Below the pieces are notes generated by a model. That model was not told the origin of the DNA, made no database searches, and was given only the letters and a program-made list of their open reading frames with translations. Below are positions 1,428 through 27,744 of a DNA stretch of 64,000 bases, piece after piece. Origin of the DNA: Escherichia coli (GTDB lineage Bacteria > Pseudomonadota > Gammaproteobacteria > Enterobacterales > Enterobacteriaceae). The position numbers were made by a program, and so were the translations under genes. The first letter of the stretch is position 1. The number at the start of each line of letters is the position of its first letter. The stretch lies in assembly GCF_044647545.1 (NCBI RefSeq), contig NZ_CP172818.1; one strand, given 5' to 3'.

Positions 1428-4400
1428 CTGTTGAAATTCAGAATTTAGGTTTTGCTTTTGTTACTGGTGAAAATACAACAGGTATAAATAGTGGCACGAT
1501 CTCGTTATTACAAAATGGTAAAGATCCGGCACCGTCTCCCATTGTTTTACTGGCTACTAACGGAGGGAGCGCCACTAATGCAGGTACGATCACAGGTAAA
1601 GTGACGGAACAACATAGCGTATTTAACAAGTATTCAACGGGCACATCGAATTCATTTATTTTTAATAACGATGTCAGTAGCATAACAGGGTTAGTCGCTC
1701 AATCGAATAGCACAATTATCAATACTGACAGCGGCATCATTGATTTGTATGGTCGTGGTAGTGTCGGCATGCTTGCTATAGCAGATTCAACAGCAGAAAA
1801 TCAGGGTAAAATTACACTGGATTCTATGTGGGTAGATGCAAATGACACTACCGCAATGCGAGATATAGCTAGCAACAGCGCCATTGACTTCGGTACAGGT
1901 GTGGGAGTTGGTACTGATAGTTATAGTGGTGCAGGGAAAAATGCAACAGCAATTAACCAATTGGGCGGTGTTATAACTATTTATAACGCCGGCGCAGGTA
2001 TGGCGGCCTATGGCGCCAGCAATACAGTTATTAACCAGGGGACGATTAACCTCGAAAAAAATGGTAATTATGACGATAGTCTGGCAGCAAATACTCTGGT
2101 AGGGATGGCTGTTTATGAGCATGGTACTGCTATCAACGACCAGACGGGTGTTATCAATATCAATGTTGGTACTGGTCAGGCGTTTTATAACGATGGCACA
2201 GGAACAATTGTTAACTATGGTACAATCTGCACTTTCGGCGTGTGCCAATCGGGGAATGAGTACAATAATACAGATGATTTCACCTCACTGATCTATACCG
2301 GTGGCGATACGATTACACGAAGCGGAGAAACTGTAACGCTAAATAAATCTGCTGCTGTGACTGATAAGCTGGCTGGGAATGTTGTTAATAGCGGAACGCT
2401 TTCCGGTGATCAAATTACGGTATCAAGCGGTCTTCTGGAAAATACCAGCGGTGGCATCATCAATAACTTAGTAAAACTTGACAAGGGTGCCGTCATTAAA
2501 AATGCCGGGGTGATGACGAATAACGTCGATGTTAGCGGTGGAATCCTCAATAATGCCGGAGAAATGACTGCGCAAATTACCATGAATGCTGGTGCTGATA
2601 GTTCGTTAGTGAACAACACCGGAACCATCAATAAAATCGTGCAGAACGCGGGGGTATTCAATAATAGTGGCAGTGTAACAGGGCGGATGATGTCGGCTGG
2701 CGGGGTCTTTAATAATCAAACTGACGGGGCGATTATGAGAGGTGCTGCGCTGACAGGTACTGCAGTGGCAAATAACGAAGGAACCTGGAACCTCGGAAGT
2801 AGTAGTGAGGGTAACAACACCGGGATGCTGGAAGTTAATAATAATTCAGCTTTCAATAACCGCGGCGAGTTTATTCTTGATAACGACAAGAATGCTGTGC
2901 ACATCAACCAGTCCGGTACGCTTTATAATACCGGTCACATGAACATCAGTAATTCTTCCCACAACGGAGCCGTTAATATGTGGGGCGGAAATGGTCGTTT
3001 TATCAATGACGGAACGATTGATGTTTCTGCGAAGTCACTGGTAGTCAGCGCTAATAATGCCGGCGATCAGAATGCCTTCTTCTGGAACCAGGATAACGGG
3101 GTCATCAACTTCGATCACGACAGCGCCAGTGCCGTGAAAGTCACCCACAGCAACTTTATTGCCCAGAATGACGGCATCATGAACATCAGCGGCACCGGTG
3201 CTGTGGCTATGGAAGGTGATAAGAACGCGCAGCTGGTTAACAATGGCACCATCAACCTCGGTACCGCAGGCACTACTGACACGGGTATGATCGGTATGCA
3301 ACTCGATGCCAACGCCACGGCGGATGCGGTAATCGAAAACAACGGCACCATCAATATCTTCGCCAATGACTCGTTTGCATTTAGCGTACTGGGTACAGTA
3401 GGTCATGTGGTTAACAACGGCACGGTGGTGATTGCCGATGGGGTTACGGGTTCTGGACTGATCAAGCAGGGCGACAGCATCAATGTTGAAGGTATGAACG
3501 GTAACAACGGTAATAGCAGCGAAGTGCATTATGGCGACTATACGTTGCCGGATGTGCCGAAGCCCAATACGGTTAGTGTAACGTCGGGAAGTGATGAGGC
3601 TGGTGGCAGCATGAACAACCTCAACGGCTATGTCGTCGGTACCAACGTTAACGGCAGCGCCGGGAAGCTGAAGGTTAACAATGCCAGCATGAACGGCGTG
3701 GAGATTAACACGGGCTTTACCGCTGGTACGGCAGACACCACTGTGAGTTTTGATAACGTAGTGGAAGGTAGCAACCTGACCGACGCTGACGCCATCACCT
3801 CAACGTCCGTGGTATGGACTGCCAAAGGCAGCACCGATGCCAGCGGTAACGTTGACGTCACCATGAGCAAAAATGCCTACACCGATGTGGCAACAGATGC
3901 CTCGGTGAATGACATCGCGAAAGCACTGGATGCGGGTTACACCAACAACGAACTGTTTACCAGCCTGAACGTCGGCACGACTGCTGAACTGAACAGTGCT
4001 CTGAAACAGGTCAGCGGTAGCCAGGCGACCACGGTATTCCGCGAAGCGCGCGTGTTAAGCAACCGCTTTAGTATGCTGGCAGATGCCGCGCCGAAAGTGG
4101 GTAACGGTCTGGCGTTCAACGTTGTCGCGAAAGGCGATCCGCGTGCCGAGTTAGGTAATAATACCGAATACGACATGCTGGCATTGCGTAAAACTATCGA
4201 CCTGAGCGAAAGCCAGACGATGAGTCTGGAGTACGGTATCGCTCGTCTCGATGGTGATGGTGCGCAGAAAGCGGGTGATAATGGCGTTACAGGCGGTTAT
4301 AGCCAGTTTTTTGGCCTGAAACATCAGATGTCGTTCGATAACGGCATGAACTGGAATAACGCCTTGCGTTACGACGTTCACAACCTTGACAGCAGCCGCT

Positions 4401-4924
4401 CGATTGCATTTGGCAACACGAACAAAACGGCTGATACCGACGTGAAACAGCAGTACCTGGAGTTCCGCAGCGAAGGGGCGAAGACTTTCGAACCGAGCGA
4501 AGGACTGAAGGTTACGCCATATGCGGGTGTAAAACTGCGTCACACACTGGAAGGTGGCTATCAGGAGCGCAATGCCGGAGACTTTAACCTGAATATGAAC
4601 AGTGGCAGCGAAACGGCGGTGGACAGCATCGTCGGGCTGAAACTGGACTACGCAGGTAAAGACGGCTGGAGCGCTAGCGCTACGCTGGAAGGCGGGCCGA
4701 ACCTGAGCTACGCGAAGAGCCAGCGTACGGCAAGCCTGGCAGGCGCAGGCAGTCAGCACTTTAACGTCGATGACGGTCAGAAGGGCGGCGGCATCAATAG
4801 CCTGACAAGCGTCGGCGTGAAGTACAGCAGCAAAGAAAGTTCGCTGAATCTGGATGCGTACAACTGGAAAGAGGATGGCATCAGCGATAAAGGCGTGATG
4901 CTGAACTTCAAGAAAACGTTCTAA
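1428..4924 (+). pseudogene. ydbA: ydbA C-terminal portion: autotransporter passenger repeats plus beta-barrel translocator; gene disrupted by IS2 and IS30
   Basis: Open frame runs from the IS30 junction with no start of its own; Gly/Asn/Thr-rich repeats and a C-terminal barrel ending in F; annotated ORF 1601..4924 is the internal Met-start part. Confidence 0.8.
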
Positions 4925-4944
4925 TTTTTAGCATGTGATACCTA

Positions 4945-4977
4945 AACCGCAACGCTGATACAGGTTGCGGTTTTTTA
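4945..4977 (+). terminator. Rho-independent terminator downstream of ydbA
   Basis: GC stem AACCGCAAC / GTTGCGGTT followed by a T6 run. Confidence 0.65.
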
Positions 4978-5131
4978 TTGCCGGATGCGGCGCTTGACGC
5001 GTTTTGTTTTGGTGTCTTCCAGGACAATAGAGCAACTCATCCAGTAATCTTGTTTACGCCTTCGCATTATTTAACTCTTTTCGTTTCTATACTGATTTTT
5101 CTGAATTCGTTTTATTACAGGGCAGGGTGCG

Positions 5132-5992
5132 ATGAGCAGCAATACATTTACTCTCGGTACAAAATCCGTTAACCGTCTTGGTTATGGCGCGATGCAACTG
5201 GCAGGTCCTGGGGTTTTTGGCCCCCCAAGAGATCGCCACGTCGCTATAACCGTGCTGCGTGAGGCGCTGGCATTGGGCGTCAATCACATTGATACCAGCG
5301 ACTTTTATGGTCCGCACGTCACCAATCAGATTATCCGCGAAGCGCTTTATCCTTACTCTGACGACCTGACCATTGTTACTAAAATTGGGGCGCGGCGTGG
5401 AGAGGACGCCTCCTGGTTGCCCGCATTTTCTCCGGCAGAGTTGCAAAAAGCGGTGCACGATAATCTACGTAATCTCGGGCTGGACGTACTGGATGTGGTT
5501 AACCTGCGCGTTATGATGGGGGATGGTCATGGCCCAGCGGAAGGATCGATTGAAGCCAGCCTGACCGTGCTGGCAGAGATGCAAGAACAAGGCCTGGTAA
5601 AACATATTGGCCTGAGCAACGTCACACCGACGCAGGTTGCAGAGGCGCGTAAGATTACCGAAATCGTCTGTGTGCAGAACGAATACAACATTGCTCATCG
5701 TGCTGATGACGCAATGATTGATGCTTTGGCTCGTGACGGCATTGCCTACGTGCCGTTCTTTCCGCTCGGGGGCTTTACGCCGCTGCAATCTTCAACGCTT
5801 TCCGATGTTGCTGCGAGCCTGGGTGCAACACCAATGCAGGTAGCGCTGGCGTGGCTGTTACAACGTTCACCGAATATTTTGTTGATTCCTGGAACATCTT
5901 CTGTTGCGCATTTACGGGAGAATATGGCCGCAGAAAAATTGCATCTTTCTGAGGAAGTGTTGTCTACGTTGGATGGTATTTCGCGAGAATAA
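5132..5992 (+). CDS. ydbC: Aldo-keto reductase family oxidoreductase
   Basis: 286-aa ORF with aldo-keto reductase motifs (…HIDTSDFYG…); Shine-Dalgarno-like site upstream. Confidence 0.85.
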   Translation: MSSNTFTLGTKSVNRLGYGAMQLAGPGVFGPPRDRHVAITVLREALALGVNHIDTSDFYGPHVTNQIIREALYPYSDDLTIVTKIGARRGEDASWLPAFSPAELQKAVHDNLRNLGLDVLDVVNLRVMMGDGHGPAEGSIEASLTVLAEMQEQGLVKHIGLSNVTPTQVAEARKITEIVCVQNEYNIAHRADDAMIDALARDGIAYVPFFPLGGFTPLQSSTLSDVAASLGATPMQVALAWLLQRSPNILLIPGTSSVAHLRENMAAEKLHLSEEVLSTLDGISRE

Positions 5993-23357: not shown

Positions 23358-24998
23358 ATGAATACAACTCCCTCACAGCGATTAGGTTTTTTGCATCACA
23401 TCAGGCTGGTTCCGTTATTTGCCTGCATTCTTGGCGGTATCTTAGTTCTATTAGCATTAAGTTCTGCTCTGGCTGGCTATTTCCTCTGGCAGGCCGATCG
23501 CGATCAGCGTGATGTTACTGCGGAGATTGAGATTCGGACCGGGTTAGCGAACAGTTCAGATTTTTTGCGTTCAGCCCGGATCAATATGATTCAGGCCGGT
23601 GCTGCGAGTCGTATTGCGGAAATGGAAGCAATGAAGCGAAATATTGCGCAAGCCGAATCGGAGATTAAACAGTCGCAGCAAGGTTATCGTGCTTATCAGA
23701 ATCGGTCGGTGAAAACACCTGCTGATGAAGCCCTCGACACTGAATTAAATCAACGCTTCCAGGCTTATATCACGGGTATGCAACCGATGTTGAAATATGC
23801 CAAAAATGGCATGTTTGAAGCGATTATCAATCATGAAAGTGAGCAGATCCGACCGCTGGATAATGCTTATACCGATATTTTGAACAAAGCCGTTAAGATA
23901 CGTAGCACCAGAGCCAACCAACTGGCGGAACTGGCCCATCAGCGCACCCGCCTGGGTGGGATGTTCATGATTGGCGCGTTTGTGCTTGCCCTGGTCATGA
24001 CGCTGATAACATTTATAGTGCTACGTCGGATCGTCATTCGTCCACTGCAACATGCCGCACAACGGATTGAAAAAATCGCCAGTGGCGATCTGACGATGAA
24101 TGATGAACCGGCGGGTCGTAATGAAATCGGTCGCTTAAGTCGTCATTTACAGCAAATGCAGCATTCACTGGGGATGACTGTAGGGACCGTTCGACAGGGC
24201 GCGGAAGAGATTTATCGTGGCACCAGCGAAATTTCCGCTGGCAATGCGGACCTTTCATCTCGCACCGAAGAACAAGCGGCGGCAATTGAACAAACTGCCG
24301 CCAGCATGGAGCAACTCACTGCGACGGTGAAACAGAATGCAGATAACGCGCATCATGCCAGCAAACTGGCGCAGGAGGCTTCTATTAAAGCCAGCGATGG
24401 CGGGCAGACGGTTTCCGGTGTAGTAAAAACGATGGGCGCTATCTCCACGAGTTCGAAGAAAATTTCTGAGATCACCGCCGTCATCAACAGTATTGCTTTC
24501 CAGACGAATATTCTGGCACTGAATGCTGCCGTTGAAGCCGCGCGAGCGGGTGAGCAAGGACGTGGATTTGCCGTTGTCGCCAGCGAAGTACGGACACTCG
24601 CAAGCCGCAGCGCTCAGGCGGCGAAAGAGATTGAAGGCTTGATCAGTGAATCAGTCAGATTAATTGACCTGGGATCGGATGAGGTGGCAACGGCAGGGAA
24701 AACCATGAGCACTATTGTTGATGCCGTCGCGAGTGTCACACATATCATGCAGGAAATTGCCGCCGCCTCGGATGAACAAAGCAGAGGCATAACGCAGGTT
24801 AGCCAGGCGATTTCAGAAATGGATAAGGTGACGCAACAGAATGCTTCTCTGGTAGAAGAGGCCTCAGCGGCGGCGGTGTCCCTTGAAGAACAGGCGGCAC
24901 GATTAACTGAGGCGGTGGACGTATTCCGTCTGAACAAACATTCTGTGTCGGCAGAACCTCGCGGAGCGGGTGAATCAGTTAGTTTCGCTACGGTGTGA
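23358..24998 (+). CDS. trg: Methyl-accepting chemotaxis protein III (ribose/galactose transducer)
   Basis: 546-aa ORF with two transmembrane segments, HAMP domain and the conserved chemoreceptor signalling and methylation region. Confidence 0.9.
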
Positions 24999-25010
24999 AA
25001 ATGTTCAAGG

Positions 25011-25032
25011 AAGGGATCGACAGATCCCTTCA
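25011..25032. terminator. Bidirectional hairpin between convergent trg and ydcI
   Basis: Stem GAAGGGATC / GATCCCTTC between the two stop codons. Confidence 0.55.
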
Positions 25033-25036
25033 CCTT

Positions 25037-25960
25037 TCAGAACGGCATTGATTTTCGAATAGCGTTAATCATCAACTGGCAACCAGAAGAGAACGTCGCA
25101 TCTACGCGGGTCAGTATTCCAATCGGTTCGCCTGCACCATGTCCCGGAACAGGCAGGGCCACCAGCGTGGCATGACGCAGGTCGTCTTTTACAGCGCCAG
25201 AAGGGACAAACCACACGTAGTCGTATTCAACCGTAAGTTGACGAGATAGCGAAGCAGACAGTGTTTCGATACAGCCCGAAGGAATTTTACAGCCCTGGCT
25301 CTGCACTAATGCATCTGAATGCTGGCGTGGCGCAGTGCCTTCTGGTGATACAACGACCGGCCATTCCAGCACCCGGCTTAGCGTTACGTTCTCCTGAAGT
25401 AGCGGATGATTAGGGCGGACAACCAGCTTCAGCGATTCAAGAAACAGCAGTTCGTAATTAAGTCCGGTCATCAGTTCAGGATCTGACATCCGACCAATGC
25501 CGATATCGATTTCCCCGGTTTTTAAACCCGCAAGAATCATAGGGTTACTCATTGTCGCAACTTGCAAGGTCGTCTCTTTTTGTTGCTGATGAAACTGACC
25601 TATAACCGAAGGTAATATCCCCAGTGCCGCAGTCGGTAGTGCACCAACCCTGACGACATCATTATTAAGACCTTCTTTACGATGAAGCGACTGTCCAGCA
25701 GTGTTGATGGCGTCAAGAACTCTGACTGCATGCGTTAAAAATTGTTCGCCGGGTAAGGTAAGTTGCGCCCCCTGACGACCACGCTCAAACAAGCGAGCGC
25801 CCGTCAGCTGCTCCAGTTCATTCAATGTCTTAGAGAGCGCAGGTTGACTCAAATTAAGGGTTTCAGCCGCGCGCCCCAAAGTTCCTTGTTGTGCGACAGC
25901 TACGAATGTATGAAGGTGGCGCAAACGGATGCGCTGACTAAACAGACTATTTTTTTCCAT
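25037..25960 (-). CDS. ydcI: LysR-type transcriptional regulator
   Basis: 307 aa from the internal start MEKNSLFSQRIRLRHLHTFVAV… (track ORF extends further upstream); N-terminal helix-turn-helix. Confidence 0.8.
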   Translation of the reverse strand: MEKNSLFSQRIRLRHLHTFVAVAQQGTLGRAAETLNLSQPALSKTLNELEQLTGARLFERGRQGAQLTLPGEQFLTHAVRVLDAINTAGQSLHRKEGLNNDVVRVGALPTAALGILPSVIGQFHQQQKETTLQVATMSNPMILAGLKTGEIDIGIGRMSDPELMTGLNYELLFLESLKLVVRPNHPLLQENVTLSRVLEWPVVVSPEGTAPRQHSDALVQSQGCKIPSGCIETLSASLSRQLTVEYDYVWFVPSGAVKDDLRHATLVALPVPGHGAGEPIGILTRVDATFSSGCQLMINAIRKSMPF

Positions 25961-26176
25961 AAGCGATGTTAAAAACGAAGCGGTGTCGCTGACAAGTGAA
26001 GTTGTTTGATTATGATAACTTGATTGCAAAATATTATTAACAATTAAAGCAATTATGTTACAGCAAAATGGATAATATTGATGTTTTCGCGGCGAGATCA
26101 CAGTTTGTAAATTCTTCCCGCCGGAGTGAATGCGGTTACCTACACTCCAGATTACTGACCACTGGAGGCAGACACT

Positions 26177-27520
26177 ATGGCGAACAGCATCACGGCGGAT
26201 GAGATTCGGGAACAGTTTTCGCAGGCAATGTCAGCCATGTACCAGCAAGAAGTTCCGCAGTACGGCACGCTGCTGGAACTGGTAGCTGATGTGAATCTGG
26301 CTGTGCTGGAAAACAATCCTCAACTGCACGAAAAAATGGTAAATGCAGACGAGCTGGCGCGACTGAATGTTGAACGTCATGGGGCGATTCGTGTTGGGAC
26401 TGCACAAGAGCTTGCTACTCTTCGGCGGATGTTTGCCATTATGGGGATGTACCCGGTGAGCTATTACGATCTCTCGCAGGCGGGAGTGCCGGTACATTCC
26501 ACAGCATTTCGGCCCATTGATGATGCTTCTCTGGCGCGTAATCCATTCCGCATTTTTACCTCATTACTCCGCCTTGAGCTTATCGAGAACGAATTTTTGC
26601 GCCAGAAAGCGGCGGAGATTCTGCGTCAGCGCGATATCTTCACCCCACGTTGTCGACAACTGTTAGAGGAATATGAGCAGCGGGGCGGTTTTAACGAAAC
26701 ACAGGCACAGGAGTTTGTGCAGGAAGCCCTGGAAACGTTTCGTTGGCACCAGTCAGCAACGGTAGATGAAGAAACCTATCGCGCCTTGCACAACGAACAT
26801 CGGTTGATTGCTGATGTGGTCTGTTTTCCTGGATGCCATATCAACCACCTGACGCCACGTACGCTGGATATTGACCGGGTGCAGTCGATGATGCCTGAAT
26901 GCGGGATTGAACCCAAAATTCTGATCGAAGGGCCGCCGCGCCGCGAGGTACCTATTTTACTACGCCAGACCAGCTTTAAAGCACTGGAAGAGACGGTGTT
27001 GTTTGCAGGGCAGAAACAGGGTACGCATACCGCGCGCTTTGGTGAAATAGAGCAGCGTGGTGTGGCATTAACGCCGAAAGGGCGACAACTGTATGATGAT
27101 CTTCTGCGTAACGCTGGAACCGGGCAGGATAATCTCACTCACCAAATGCATTTACAGGAAACCTTCCGCACTTTTCCTGACAGTGAGTTTTTAATGCGTC
27201 AGCAAGGGTTGGCATGGTTCCGGTACCGTCTGACGCCTTCAGGTGAGGCGCATCGTCAGGCGATTCATTCCGGAGACGATCCACAGCCCTTAATTGAACG
27301 TGGTTGGGTAGTGGCGCAACCCATTACCTATGAAGATTTCTTGCCTGTTAGCGCGGCGGGGATCTTCCAGTCAAATCTGGGTAATGAAACGCAGGCACGC
27401 AGTCACGGTAATGCCAGTCGCGAAGCATTTGAGCAGGCGTTGGGCTGCCCGGTTTTGGATGAGTTCCAGCTTTATCAGGAAGCGGAAGAACGCAGTAAAC
27501 GTCGCTGTGGTTTGCTTTAA
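26177..27520 (+). CDS. ydcJ: DUF1338 family protein, putative metal-dependent enzyme
   Basis: 447-aa ORF divergent from ydcI with a Shine-Dalgarno-like site upstream. Confidence 0.8.
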   Translation: MANSITADEIREQFSQAMSAMYQQEVPQYGTLLELVADVNLAVLENNPQLHEKMVNADELARLNVERHGAIRVGTAQELATLRRMFAIMGMYPVSYYDLSQAGVPVHSTAFRPIDDASLARNPFRIFTSLLRLELIENEFLRQKAAEILRQRDIFTPRCRQLLEEYEQRGGFNETQAQEFVQEALETFRWHQSATVDEETYRALHNEHRLIADVVCFPGCHINHLTPRTLDIDRVQSMMPECGIEPKILIEGPPRREVPILLRQTSFKALEETVLFAGQKQGTHTARFGEIEQRGVALTPKGRQLYDDLLRNAGTGQDNLTHQMHLQETFRTFPDSEFLMRQQGLAWFRYRLTPSGEAHRQAIHSGDDPQPLIERGWVVAQPITYEDFLPVSAAGIFQSNLGNETQARSHGNASREAFEQALGCPVLDEFQLYQEAEERSKRRCGLL

Positions 27521-27744
27521 ATTCTGACCATCCGCCTTTGCAAAAATTTGCCTGATTTTACAAACGAATCAGGCTCATCCCATCGACATAAAAAAAATGC
27601 CAATTTATGCATATTCTCTGAGTTCAACAATTGGATTATTAATAAATATTGTCTAGAGTGAGCGGTCATAAATAAGCACTTTCTTGCCGCTGAAAACGAC
27701 CAGCGCGGGACCATTCACAACACCAGAAGGACTCACTTTCAGGT

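Follow-up and report, generated by a model that had tools for sequence, protein, structure and literature searches.

The ydcI-ydcJ locus of Escherichia coli raises the question of whether a LysR-type regulator controls the enzyme gene from which it diverges. In the window (the whole stretch of 64,000 nucleotides that was analysed), ydcI lies at 25037-25960 on the minus strand and encodes 307 amino acids, while ydcJ, named hglS in RefSeq, lies at 26177-27520 on the plus strand and encodes 447 amino acids; both were placed by an ORF scan and by the RefSeq annotation of an E. coli genome with 100% identity. A longer ORF of 354 amino acids, with a GTG start at 26101, was set aside for ydcI, as it differs from the annotated start. 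The two genes diverge over a spacer of 216 bp (25961-26176), and these coordinates, together with the names ydcI and ydcJ given by an earlier, sequence-only reading of this DNA, were borne out by the ORF scan, the Pfam domains and RefSeq. The same reading called the spacer AT-rich, which is true of the whole (38.9% GC against 48.7% for the window) but not of the 81 bp nearest ydcJ (49.4% GC), the AT-richness being limited to the 135 bp nearest ydcI (32.6% GC). The locus was found in 5405 of 5426 complete E. coli genomes. The gene pair is already known: HglS has an established reaction, structure and name, and there are earlier studies of YdcI as a regulator with pleiotropic effects. The locus is thus ordinary, known biology, and its evolutionary twist is modest.

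The HglS enzyme

The product of hglS is identified by PF07063, NF049974, PDB matches and RefSeq as an Fe(II)/O2-dependent 2-oxoadipate dioxygenase/decarboxylase, and according to the literature it catalyzes the Fe(II)- and O2-dependent decarboxylation and hydroxylation of 2-oxoadipate to give D-2-hydroxyglutarate (PMC7286885). The purified E. coli enzyme was reported to turn 2-oxoadipate into 2-hydroxyglutarate in vitro, as followed by LC-MS (PMC7286885). The proposal that YdcJ depends on a metal and acts on 2-oxo acids was therefore correct and already proven with 2-oxoadipate, and the accompanying remark that no substrate was evident is outdated.

YdcJ scores 537 bits against the Pfam family HGLS (PF07063; cutoff 25), covering profile positions 1-386 of 386, and passes the NCBIfam equivalog HglS (NF049974) with 741.9 bits against a cutoff of 550. 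It shares about 99% identity with Shigella YdcJ, whose structure has been solved (PDB 2RJB, E=3e-301), a near-identity through which it can be assigned the partly closed beta-barrel of the VOC type, and it also matches PDB 6W1G (E=9e-158). The latter belongs to HglS of Pseudomonas putida (PP_5260, hydroxyglutarate synthase; PDB 6W1G/6W1H), which shares 59% full-length identity with YdcJ and was solved with 2RJB as the molecular-replacement model. The two proteins have in common the VOC fold, a His-His-Glu metal triad, a substrate-specifying arginine and a Val-Ser pair, and the same in vitro activity was reported for both (PMC7286885). The triad H68/H224/E290 of YdcJ aligns with H70, H226 and E294 of HglS, R72 corresponds to R74, and V391/S392 to V402/S403, all of them being invariant; the roles of the arginine and of the Val-Ser pair have been described (PMC7286885). 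A lack of the metal-binding residues had been named as the first finding that would speak against the assignment, and with the triad, R72 and V391/S392 all kept this test fails to refute it.

The neighbourhood of the E. coli gene is different. Genes of lysine/2-aminoadipate catabolism are typical of the HglS family, though not defining, and in P. putida, Ralstonia and Agrobacterium hglS lies among them (aminotransferase, aldehyde dehydrogenase and an oxidoreductase resembling D-2-hydroxyglutarate dehydrogenase), whereas in E. coli it is monocistronic and its neighbours are ydcI and opgD. In Ralstonia and Agrobacterium the gene sits in aminotransferase/dehydrogenase operons with other regulators, and the LysR gene that diverges from hglS in Ralstonia shows no kinship to YdcI beyond the family level. 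No source of 2-oxoadipate is known in E. coli (PMC7286885), and the comparison frames the question of what role HglS has in such an organism.

YdcI and the PcaQ family

YdcI is a LysR-type regulator by its domains, HTH_1 (PF00126, 69.4 bits) and LysR_substrate (PF03466, 121.1 bits), and falls in the PcaQ clade. PcaQ, the LysR-type activator of protocatechuate genes in Agrobacterium, Sinorhizobium and Burkholderiales, is its best curated family by a wide margin (TIGR02424, 287.7 bits; next family, 136.6), but since the cutoff is 303.8 bits, this is the nearest family and not an accepted equivalog; the Klebsiella orthologue reaches 297.0 bits against the same cutoff. In a plasmid search (E<1e-40), the annotated non-enteric matches listed were all named pcaQ, except for one generic LysR entry. 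YdcI is 48.6% identical to a regulator of R. solanacearum that diverges from pcaHG across a region containing a perfect box, and the recognition helix SQPA(L/I)SKTL, common to PcaQ and YdcI, is kept between the two. Membership of the clade holds in all genera, those without pcaHG included. Unlike PcaQ, YdcI of E. coli has neither pca genes nor a good operator nearby.

In Agrobacterium, the effector of PcaQ is reportedly beta-carboxy-cis,cis-muconate or gamma-carboxymuconolactone. Because PcaQ is the nearest family, an intermediate of the protocatechuate pathway is more likely than 2-oxoadipate to have been the ancestral inducer of YdcI, as far as the sequences can tell. A different case is that of HgcR (PP_4494) of P. 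putida, a LysR activator that responds to D-2-hydroxyglutarate and lies beside the gene of D-2-hydroxyglutarate dehydrogenase (PMC12297413). Like YdcI, it adjoins a gene of the 2-oxoadipate/D-2-hydroxyglutarate pathway, and it is induced by a metabolite of that pathway (PMC12297413); it belongs, however, to another gene pair in another organism, and the likeness is drawn at the level of the LysR family. YdcI itself has been reported to be regulated at the translational level in acid stress (PMC10746267).

Two modules in the spacer

The spacer was studied with a conservation profile of 74 sequences and with a set of 73 loci from Enterobacteriaceae for which the start codons of both genes could be located, 28 of them with an insert between the genes and 45 tight. 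The ydcI leader (25961-25988, minus strand) is nearly invariant across genera at 25961-25977 and has no obvious Shine-Dalgarno sequence. Next to it lies module A (25989-26045), a conserved block predicted to be the promoter/operator of ydcI. Its distance from the ydcI ATG is 29-30 nt in 72 loci, that of Pantoea sp. L079 being the exception among the 73, and it remains with ydcI where other genes are inserted. A consensus scan places in it a predicted sigma-70 promoter of ydcI (26012-26040, minus strand; 9/12) with -35 TTAATA (26035-26040) and -10 TATCAT (26012-26017), the same hexamers being listed by Shimada 2014 (PMC3946193). The scan also predicts a promoter-like element on the plus strand (25989-26016; CTGACA-16-TATGAT, 10/12), which has been assigned to ydcJ as a 'constitutive promoter' (PMC3946193) and whose -10 is weaker in most other genera (TTTGAT).

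These two -10 elements overlap (26012-26017 on the minus strand and 26011-26016 on the plus strand), so that RNA polymerase or YdcI on module A would set hglS reciprocally to ydcI. Coupling by such promoter interference, with no inducer or operator, draws on the 9/12 and 10/12 hexamers, both listed as constitutive promoters (PMC3946193), and on base 26012, which is A in Escherichia and T in most genera, the A improving both -10 elements. We nevertheless consider it very improbable: the hexamers are consensus matches alone, a start near 26023 would give hglS a leader of 153 nt, and the plus-strand -10 of most genera is without the key A at position 2, with other genes standing between it and ydcJ. 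Nor do the two genes behave reciprocally, as ydcJ was reported to rise 3.64-fold at the transition to stationary phase, and ydcI and ydcJ both rise about 3.5-fold on entry to stationary phase in O157:H7 (PMC2241611).

The published consensus of the PcaQ operator is ATAAC-N5-GTTAT (PMC3572157). A scan against it found a box with three mismatches in module A, ATTGCAAAATATTAT (26023-26037), which in most genera reads ATAGCAAAATATTAT and has two mismatches. As it overlaps the -35 of ydcI, this putative site is likely to be autoregulatory.

Beyond module A, the junction (26046-26095) is poorly conserved, with only the pentamer GTTAC (26057-26061) kept, and it is here that relatives carry inserts. 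Module B, GATCACAGTTTGTAAATTCTTCC (26096-26118, plus strand), falls within the predicted promoter region of ydcJ itself; in 27 of the 28 insert loci 57-60 nt lie between its end and the ydcJ ATG, the 45 tight loci have it at the matching place in the alignment, and it holds a weak pseudo-box at 26097 (ATCAC-N5-GTAAA, three mismatches). Module C, conserved as TACCTACACTCCAGAT (26137-26152, plus strand), ends 23-24 nt before the hglS ATG and includes CTACACT (26140-26146), which we take to resemble a -10 of the sigma-S type with -13C. The Shine-Dalgarno sequence of hglS, GGAGG (26164-26168, plus strand), is conserved in the alignment.

Other candidates in this part of the spacer were rejected. 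As a CRP site, module B has a TCACA half-site alone, its partner half not being conserved by eye, and as a sigma-54 promoter it lacks, again by eye, the GG dinucleotide. The repeat CTCCAG/CTGGAG, which might form a hairpin hiding the Shine-Dalgarno sequence of hglS, is present, but RNAalifold on 28 orthologues gave no consensus pairs.

In relatives, the ydcI-linked and ydcJ-linked modules are split by pcaHG, by a pyrophosphatase gene (ppaC-like) or by a 5.7-kb insert. Judged by its sequence, then, the E. coli spacer joins two separately inherited modules, one tied to ydcI and the other to ydcJ. The locus resembles the classical pairs CatR-catBCA, BenM-benA and CynR-cynTSX in that the LysR gene and its metabolic neighbour are transcribed away from each other across a short AT-rich spacer, in which the regulator's promoter overlaps a box; it departs from them in that its spacer arose secondarily by fusion of the two modules and has no good box before the 'target'. 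A search of the spacer for the T-N11-A motif of LysR regulators, suggested as a check by the sequence-only reading, gave 20 sites against 19.0 expected from composition, five of the 20 having partial dyads and none being distinctive; as the count equals chance, the search is uninformative. The argument from a classic arrangement of LysR regulator and divergent target fails on these points and on the operator, which is missing in Escherichia.

The locus in Enterobacteriaceae

The protein homologue search returned near-identical E. coli sequences alone, and representatives of 50% clusters lay mostly on short metagenome contigs and so gave poor gene context; the comparison below concerns the 73 loci. 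In 19 of them, and also in K. pneumoniae, pcaHG lies between ydcI and ydcJ, the inserted genes being recognised by profile (PcaG 266 bits, cutoff 126; PcaH 362 bits, cutoff 296). The wider form of the locus is ydcI(pcaQ) <- pcaG <- pcaH <- operator ATAAC-N5-GTTAT -> hglS. As in PcaQ systems, the operator adjoins pcaH, at roughly the canonical -65, and another conserved element follows 31 bp beyond; unlike in those systems, the regulator gene follows pcaG and is co-oriented with it, and the divergent slot is taken by hglS.

The operator occurs with at most one mismatch in all 19 pcaHG loci, where its first base is 124-146 nt upstream of the ydcJ ATG, and in 15 of the 45 tight loci, which lack pcaHG, against a background of 0.08 per kb. 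In the tight loci its arms carry 1.68 bits and its flanks, which are random, 0.35 bits. No good operator was found in the Escherichia spacers, where every locus has at least three mismatches, and the best boxes of the E. coli spacer (26023 and 26097, three mismatches each) are at the background level of 3.4 per kb. The window locus has no pca genes, and among E. coli genomes pcaH is absent from the natural ones, four engineered strains being its only carriers. The sole box with at most one mismatch in the 64-kb window (25602-25616) was rejected, as it lies inside the ydcI coding sequence, where it is not conserved in orthologues, and 1.9 such boxes are expected by chance.

It could be argued that the tight pair is ancestral, that a mobile cassette of pcaHG and operator was inserted in some genera, and that E. 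coli lost nothing. The junction evidently accepts DNA, since unrelated inserts share it (a ppaC-like gene in Citrobacter; cytochrome bd, Mn-catalase and DUF892 genes in Enterobacter), and enteric PcaH is 76% identical to that of Ralstonia whereas the regulators are only 49% identical. Such a gain is quite unlikely in our view, since YdcI belongs to the PcaQ clade in every genus, also without pcaHG, and the operator stands without pcaHG in at least 15 loci. A 20-mer from the pcaH side, a promoter remnant, persists in Superficieibacter, which lacks pcaHG, and Cedecea shows three graded states (pcaHG with box, box only, neither). From the latter two observations, and from the confinement of pcaH to engineered E. 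coli, we infer loss rather than gain in Escherichia, the direction being read from the states of the locus.

The locus is thus probably best read as a characterised HglS beside an orphaned regulator of the PcaQ type, pcaHG and the operator having been lost in Escherichia. With both absent, module A of ydcI would be joined directly to modules B and C of hglS. YdcI may bind the degenerate box in module A and so regulate itself, while hglS would be transcribed from its own promoter in modules B and C, with the sigma-S-like -10, and possibly also from the plus-strand promoter within module A. As the cognate operator is gone, direct inducer-dependent control of hglS by YdcI in E. coli would be residual at most, and since the regulator has lost its neighbouring targets and its operator, its back-to-back position is no proof of control. 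YdcI might persist on scattered PcaQ-like boxes elsewhere, for example in the gltA-sdhC spacer, which has three such boxes against 0.34 expected. It was reported that YdcI acts at gltA and that its motif consists of inverted repeats that are rich in AT and spaced by 7 nt (PMC6237786).

The opposing view, that YdcI bound to the spacer turns hglS on, by activation or derepression, in response to 2-oxoadipate or a close precursor and that the pair is a self-contained catabolic switch, appears unlikely, though several observations favour it and count against the orphan reading. The divergent neighbourhood is conserved family-wide, ydcI and ydcJ being neighbours in every Enterobacteriaceae locus with enough flank. 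Selection acts on the PcaQ-type operator, which keeps a fixed distance from the ydcJ ATG, also in genera without adjacent pcaHG, and this suggests that YdcI there regulates hglS or its own gene. The weak boxes at 26023 and 26097 remain in E. coli, and ydcI and ydcJ are induced together at stationary phase. Finally, 2-oxoadipate, as a C6 dicarboxylate, resembles the muconate-type effectors known from related LysR regulators, a likeness that speaks for the switch. What weighs against it is the absence of a good operator from all Escherichia loci, the chance-level count of T-N11-A sites and the conservation of module B (GATCACA and AAATTCTT, with a variable middle), which is unlike that of a dyad. 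In other phyla HglS stands under unrelated regulators. A ChIP-exo/RNA-seq study of YdcI does not mention ydcJ in its main text (PMC6237786), and further literature checked for ydcJ expression or YdcI peaks gave nothing on ydcJ.

The locus serves as a warning: where LysR and enzyme genes stand back to back in E. coli, this can be the scar of a deletion and not a regulatory unit. The uses of the comparative result are modest, there being little new in the gene pair, but YdcI gains a concrete candidate operator (ATAAC-N5-GTTAT) and a candidate inducer class. A further and doubtful proposal is that hglS of Enterobacteriaceae is wired to the catabolism of aromatic acids and not of lysine. On this view E. 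coli YdcI would be a sensor, now orphaned, whose signal comes from the protocatechuate pathway (carboxymuconate-like) or is a related dicarboxylate; its puzzling effects on pH, acetate and starvation, and the frequency with which it is lost when strains evolve in the laboratory, would be those of a regulator without its cognate regulon. The proposal draws on the operator selected at a fixed distance without pcaHG and on one Pantoea, in which the gene of a PcaK-like aromatic-acid transporter lies immediately before hglS.

The ydcI/hglS locus and its enzyme

The window is chromosomal DNA of E. coli. Several complete genomes match its region 24900-27700 at 100% identity, and 5405 of 5426 E. coli genomes contain that region. 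In the RefSeq annotation, ydcI lies on the minus strand (25037-25960) and hglS (ydcJ) on the plus strand (26177-27520), with trg and opgD flanking the pair. The pair is real and its component genes were already known. The gene coordinates bear out the 216-bp spacer proposed in the sequence-only reading, whose description as AT-rich holds for the ydcI-proximal 135 bp (32.6% GC) but not for the ydcJ-proximal 81 bp (49.4% GC); the whole spacer has 38.9% GC, against 48.7% in the window.

In a Pfam search PF07063, a family now named HGLS, aligns to YdcJ over its full length, and the NCBIfam HglS equivalog model gives 741.9 bits against a cutoff of 550. YdcJ shares about 99% identity with the Shigella YdcJ structure 2RJB and 59% with HglS of P. 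putida (6W1G), whose mechanism-defining residues H70, H226, E294, R74, V402 and S403 correspond to H68, H224, E290, R72, V391 and S392 in YdcJ, all conserved. Thompson et al. found that purified E. coli YdcJ turns 2-oxoadipate into 2-hydroxyglutarate and left the role of the enzyme in E. coli open (PMC7286885). The guess of a metal-dependent enzyme acting on a 2-oxo acid was therefore right, but already established; H68, H224 and E290, the metal-binding residues whose absence would speak against it, are all kept.

YdcI as a relative of PcaQ

Two LysR domains were found in YdcI by Pfam search. Among curated families PcaQ matches it best, scoring 287.7 bits, slightly below the cutoff of 303.8, with the next family at 136.6. 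When plasmids and chromids were searched by tblastn (E<1e-40), the annotated non-enteric hits among the matches listed were all named pcaQ except one generic LysR entry, with identities to YdcI among these matches of 48.6% in R. solanacearum, 41.6% in C. metallidurans and 31-36% in rhizobia. The R. solanacearum homologue is divergent from the protocatechuate 3,4-dioxygenase genes pcaHG, with a perfect ATAACCGGATGTTAT box in between, and its recognition helix is conserved in YdcI. The operator consensus of Burkholderiales PcaQ, ATAAC-N5-GTTAT (PMC3572157), fits the YdcI ChIP-exo motif, described as AT-rich inverted repeats 7 nt apart (PMC6237786). Three PcaQ-like boxes with 2, 1 and 2 mismatches (NC_000913.3 754996, 755034 and 755108) lie within 127 bp in the spacer between gltA and sdhC, which has been reported as a target of YdcI (PMC6237786); about 0.34 are expected there. 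What the analysis adds is modest: a view of YdcI as an orphaned PcaQ for which a candidate operator is defined. Given this family relationship, the inducer, if any, would more likely be a protocatechuate-pathway dicarboxylate or tricarboxylate than 2-oxoadipate.

On the R. solanacearum megaplasmid, the box (L090, 6949-6963) runs with its right arm into the pcaQ start codon (GTT-ATG-GAA-AA). Enteric boxes are likewise followed by ATG, possibly what remains of an ancestral pcaQ start after the segment with pcaHG and the box was turned round with respect to the regulator gene.

The neighbours of hglS differ outside the family. In Ralstonia wenshanensis hglS is the first gene of an operon that also encodes an aminotransferase and an FAD oxidoreductase, and the regulator opposite it is of GcvA type and unrelated to YdcI; on an Agrobacterium pAt plasmid hglS is followed by genes for an aldehyde dehydrogenase, an aminotransferase and an FAD/Fe-S protein, with a MarR gene opposite. 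The YdcI-HglS association is thus specific to Enterobacteriaceae.

Genes between ydcI and hglS across Enterobacteriaceae

Among 80 Enterobacteriaceae loci with ydcJ orthologues (69-95% identity; designated by L-numbers), a complete ydcI start is upstream and divergent in 73, and the start-to-start distances of these fall into discrete classes. The tight class (45 loci, 213-379 bp) comprises Escherichia and genera throughout the family. [quoted passage not shown] This class includes Klebsiella (K. pneumoniae has the same arrangement), Raoultella, Kluyvera, Buttiauxella, Franconibacter, Pseudocitrobacter, one Cedecea and C. sedlakii. In L019, pcaG and pcaH occupy 4404-5812 between the ydcI and ydcJ orthologues, and a near-perfect ATAAC-N5-GTTAT box lies between pcaH and ydcJ; the same holds for L007, L021, L022, L026, L028, L035, L040, L044, L053, L055-L057, L060, L061, L065, L067, L069, L074 and L089.

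Seven loci of the Citrobacter freundii group (about 1255 bp) have a ppaC-like gene in between. It encodes a Mn-dependent inorganic pyrophosphatase-like protein of 300 aa (NF003877, 286.4 bits, cutoff 283) on the ydcJ strand, about -1025 to -122 from the ydcJ ATG, and was found in L008-L011, L014, L054 and L066, and also in L007. In one Pantoea locus (1724 bp; L079, Pantoea sp. ARC607), a gene for a PcaK-like aromatic-acid/H+ symporter of 444 aa (2108-3442; best family PcaK, 466.8 bits, below cutoff) lies on the ydcJ strand 58 nt upstream of ydcJ, and the two look like one operon; no PcaQ box with up to two mismatches was found at this locus. The largest insert, of about 5.7 kb, encodes cytochrome bd oxidase subunits I and II, a manganese catalase and two DUF892 proteins and occurs in the Enterobacter asburiae group and Lelliottia (L025, L027, L029, L038, L075). 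It spans 5733 bp in E. asburiae L027, the sole locus where the ydcI end is visible; in the other four the same genes lie upstream of ydcJ, and ydcI was not found within the 6 kb covered.

A search of E. coli genomes for pcaH found it in no natural strain. The four matches, JME64-JME67 (H49-H52; host 'not applicable'; 70% identity to enteric pcaH), are evidently engineered strains with a foreign pca pathway. In L081, an enteric-like metagenome contig, the ydcI orthologue (73% identity) keeps the ydcI-linked promoter block (module A) in the spacer, and a perfect box starts 247 nt before the ydcJ ATG, an offset unlike that of other loci. A carboxylesterase gene starts 42 nt after its ydcJ homologue (59% identity); another LysR gene and an amidohydrolase gene come next, and there is an opgD-like gene downstream.

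The PcaQ operator and the E. coli spacer

All 19 pcaHG loci carry the ATAAC-N5-GTTAT box, 12 of them in perfect form and 7 with a single mismatch, with its start 124-146 nt ahead of the ydcJ ATG and a freely variable N5. Together with a conserved 20-mer, TGTTAATTTAAAGTGAAATT, 31 bp further toward pcaH, it gives the pcaH promoter the canonical LysR arrangement of two sites. A box with 0-1 mismatch is also present, at the same offset, in 15 of the 45 tight loci (four Cedecea, an eight-locus Kosakonia/Phytobacter/Enterobacter sp. group and a three-locus Pseudescherichia group), against a background of 0.08 per kb. Since its arms are conserved (1.68 bits) while the flanks have drifted to near-random (0.35 bits), the box would still work where pcaHG is not adjacent, on either hglS or ydcI. 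Six more tight loci have two mismatches; the remaining 24, every Escherichia included, have at least three. In the E. coli spacer the best matches, at 26023 and 26097, have 3 mismatches each, a background frequency (3.4 per kb). The only box in the 64-kb window with at most one mismatch, ATAACCGAAGGTAAT (25602-25616), falls within the ydcI coding sequence and was rejected as a meaningful site, being within chance expectation in number and not conserved in orthologues.

From these comparisons we infer that Escherichia lost pcaHG and the operator, because YdcI resembles PcaQ in all genera, 15 loci without pcaHG still have the operator, the 20-mer from the pcaH side is kept in Superficieibacter, which lacks pcaHG, and Cedecea includes loci with pcaHG plus box, with the box only and with neither. 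Repeated insertion at the junction between the spacer modules may instead account for the distribution, and this junction clearly accepts foreign DNA. The E. coli spacer is bipartite, with ydcI-linked and ydcJ-linked modules that, under the preferred reading, loss, would have been fused. Module A (25989-26045) keeps a distance of 29-30 nt to the ydcI ATG in 72 of 73 loci (the exception is Pantoea sp. L079) and remains with ydcI regardless of insert; modules B (26096-26118) and C (26137-26152) remain with ydcJ, ending 57-60 and 23-24 nt before its ATG. The junction (26046-26095) is poorly conserved.

The sequence-only interpretation of the pair as a whole is partly supported. Its step from divergent arrangement to control of ydcJ by ydcI finds no support in the E. 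coli sequence: T-N11-A sites number 20 against 19.0 expected, the level of chance, the spacer is apparently fused and the cognate operator is missing. Such control is not refuted, since relatives have the operator before hglS and, in an array study of O157:H7, ydcI and ydcJ both went up about 3.5-fold on the shift to stationary phase (PMC2241611).

Module A contains a predicted ydcI promoter, TTAATA-17-TATCAT, whose -35 is overlapped by a PcaQ-like box (26023-26037; ATTGCAAAATATTAT in E. coli, ATAGCAAAATATTAT in most genera), the geometry expected for LysR autorepression. Position 26012 is A in Escherichia and T in most genera; the change turns the minus-strand -10 from TATCAA to TATCAT and a plus-strand hexamer from TTTGAT to TATGAT, and would strengthen two overlapping, predicted divergent promoters at once. 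In module C, the conserved CTACACT (26140-26146) resembles a -10 element of the sigma-S type, in which position -13 is C. The 17 nt before the ydcI start codon (25961-25977) are almost invariant across genera, with no evident Shine-Dalgarno sequence. YdcI was reported to be under translational regulation in acid stress (PMC10746267), and this near-invariant leader may be involved in that control.
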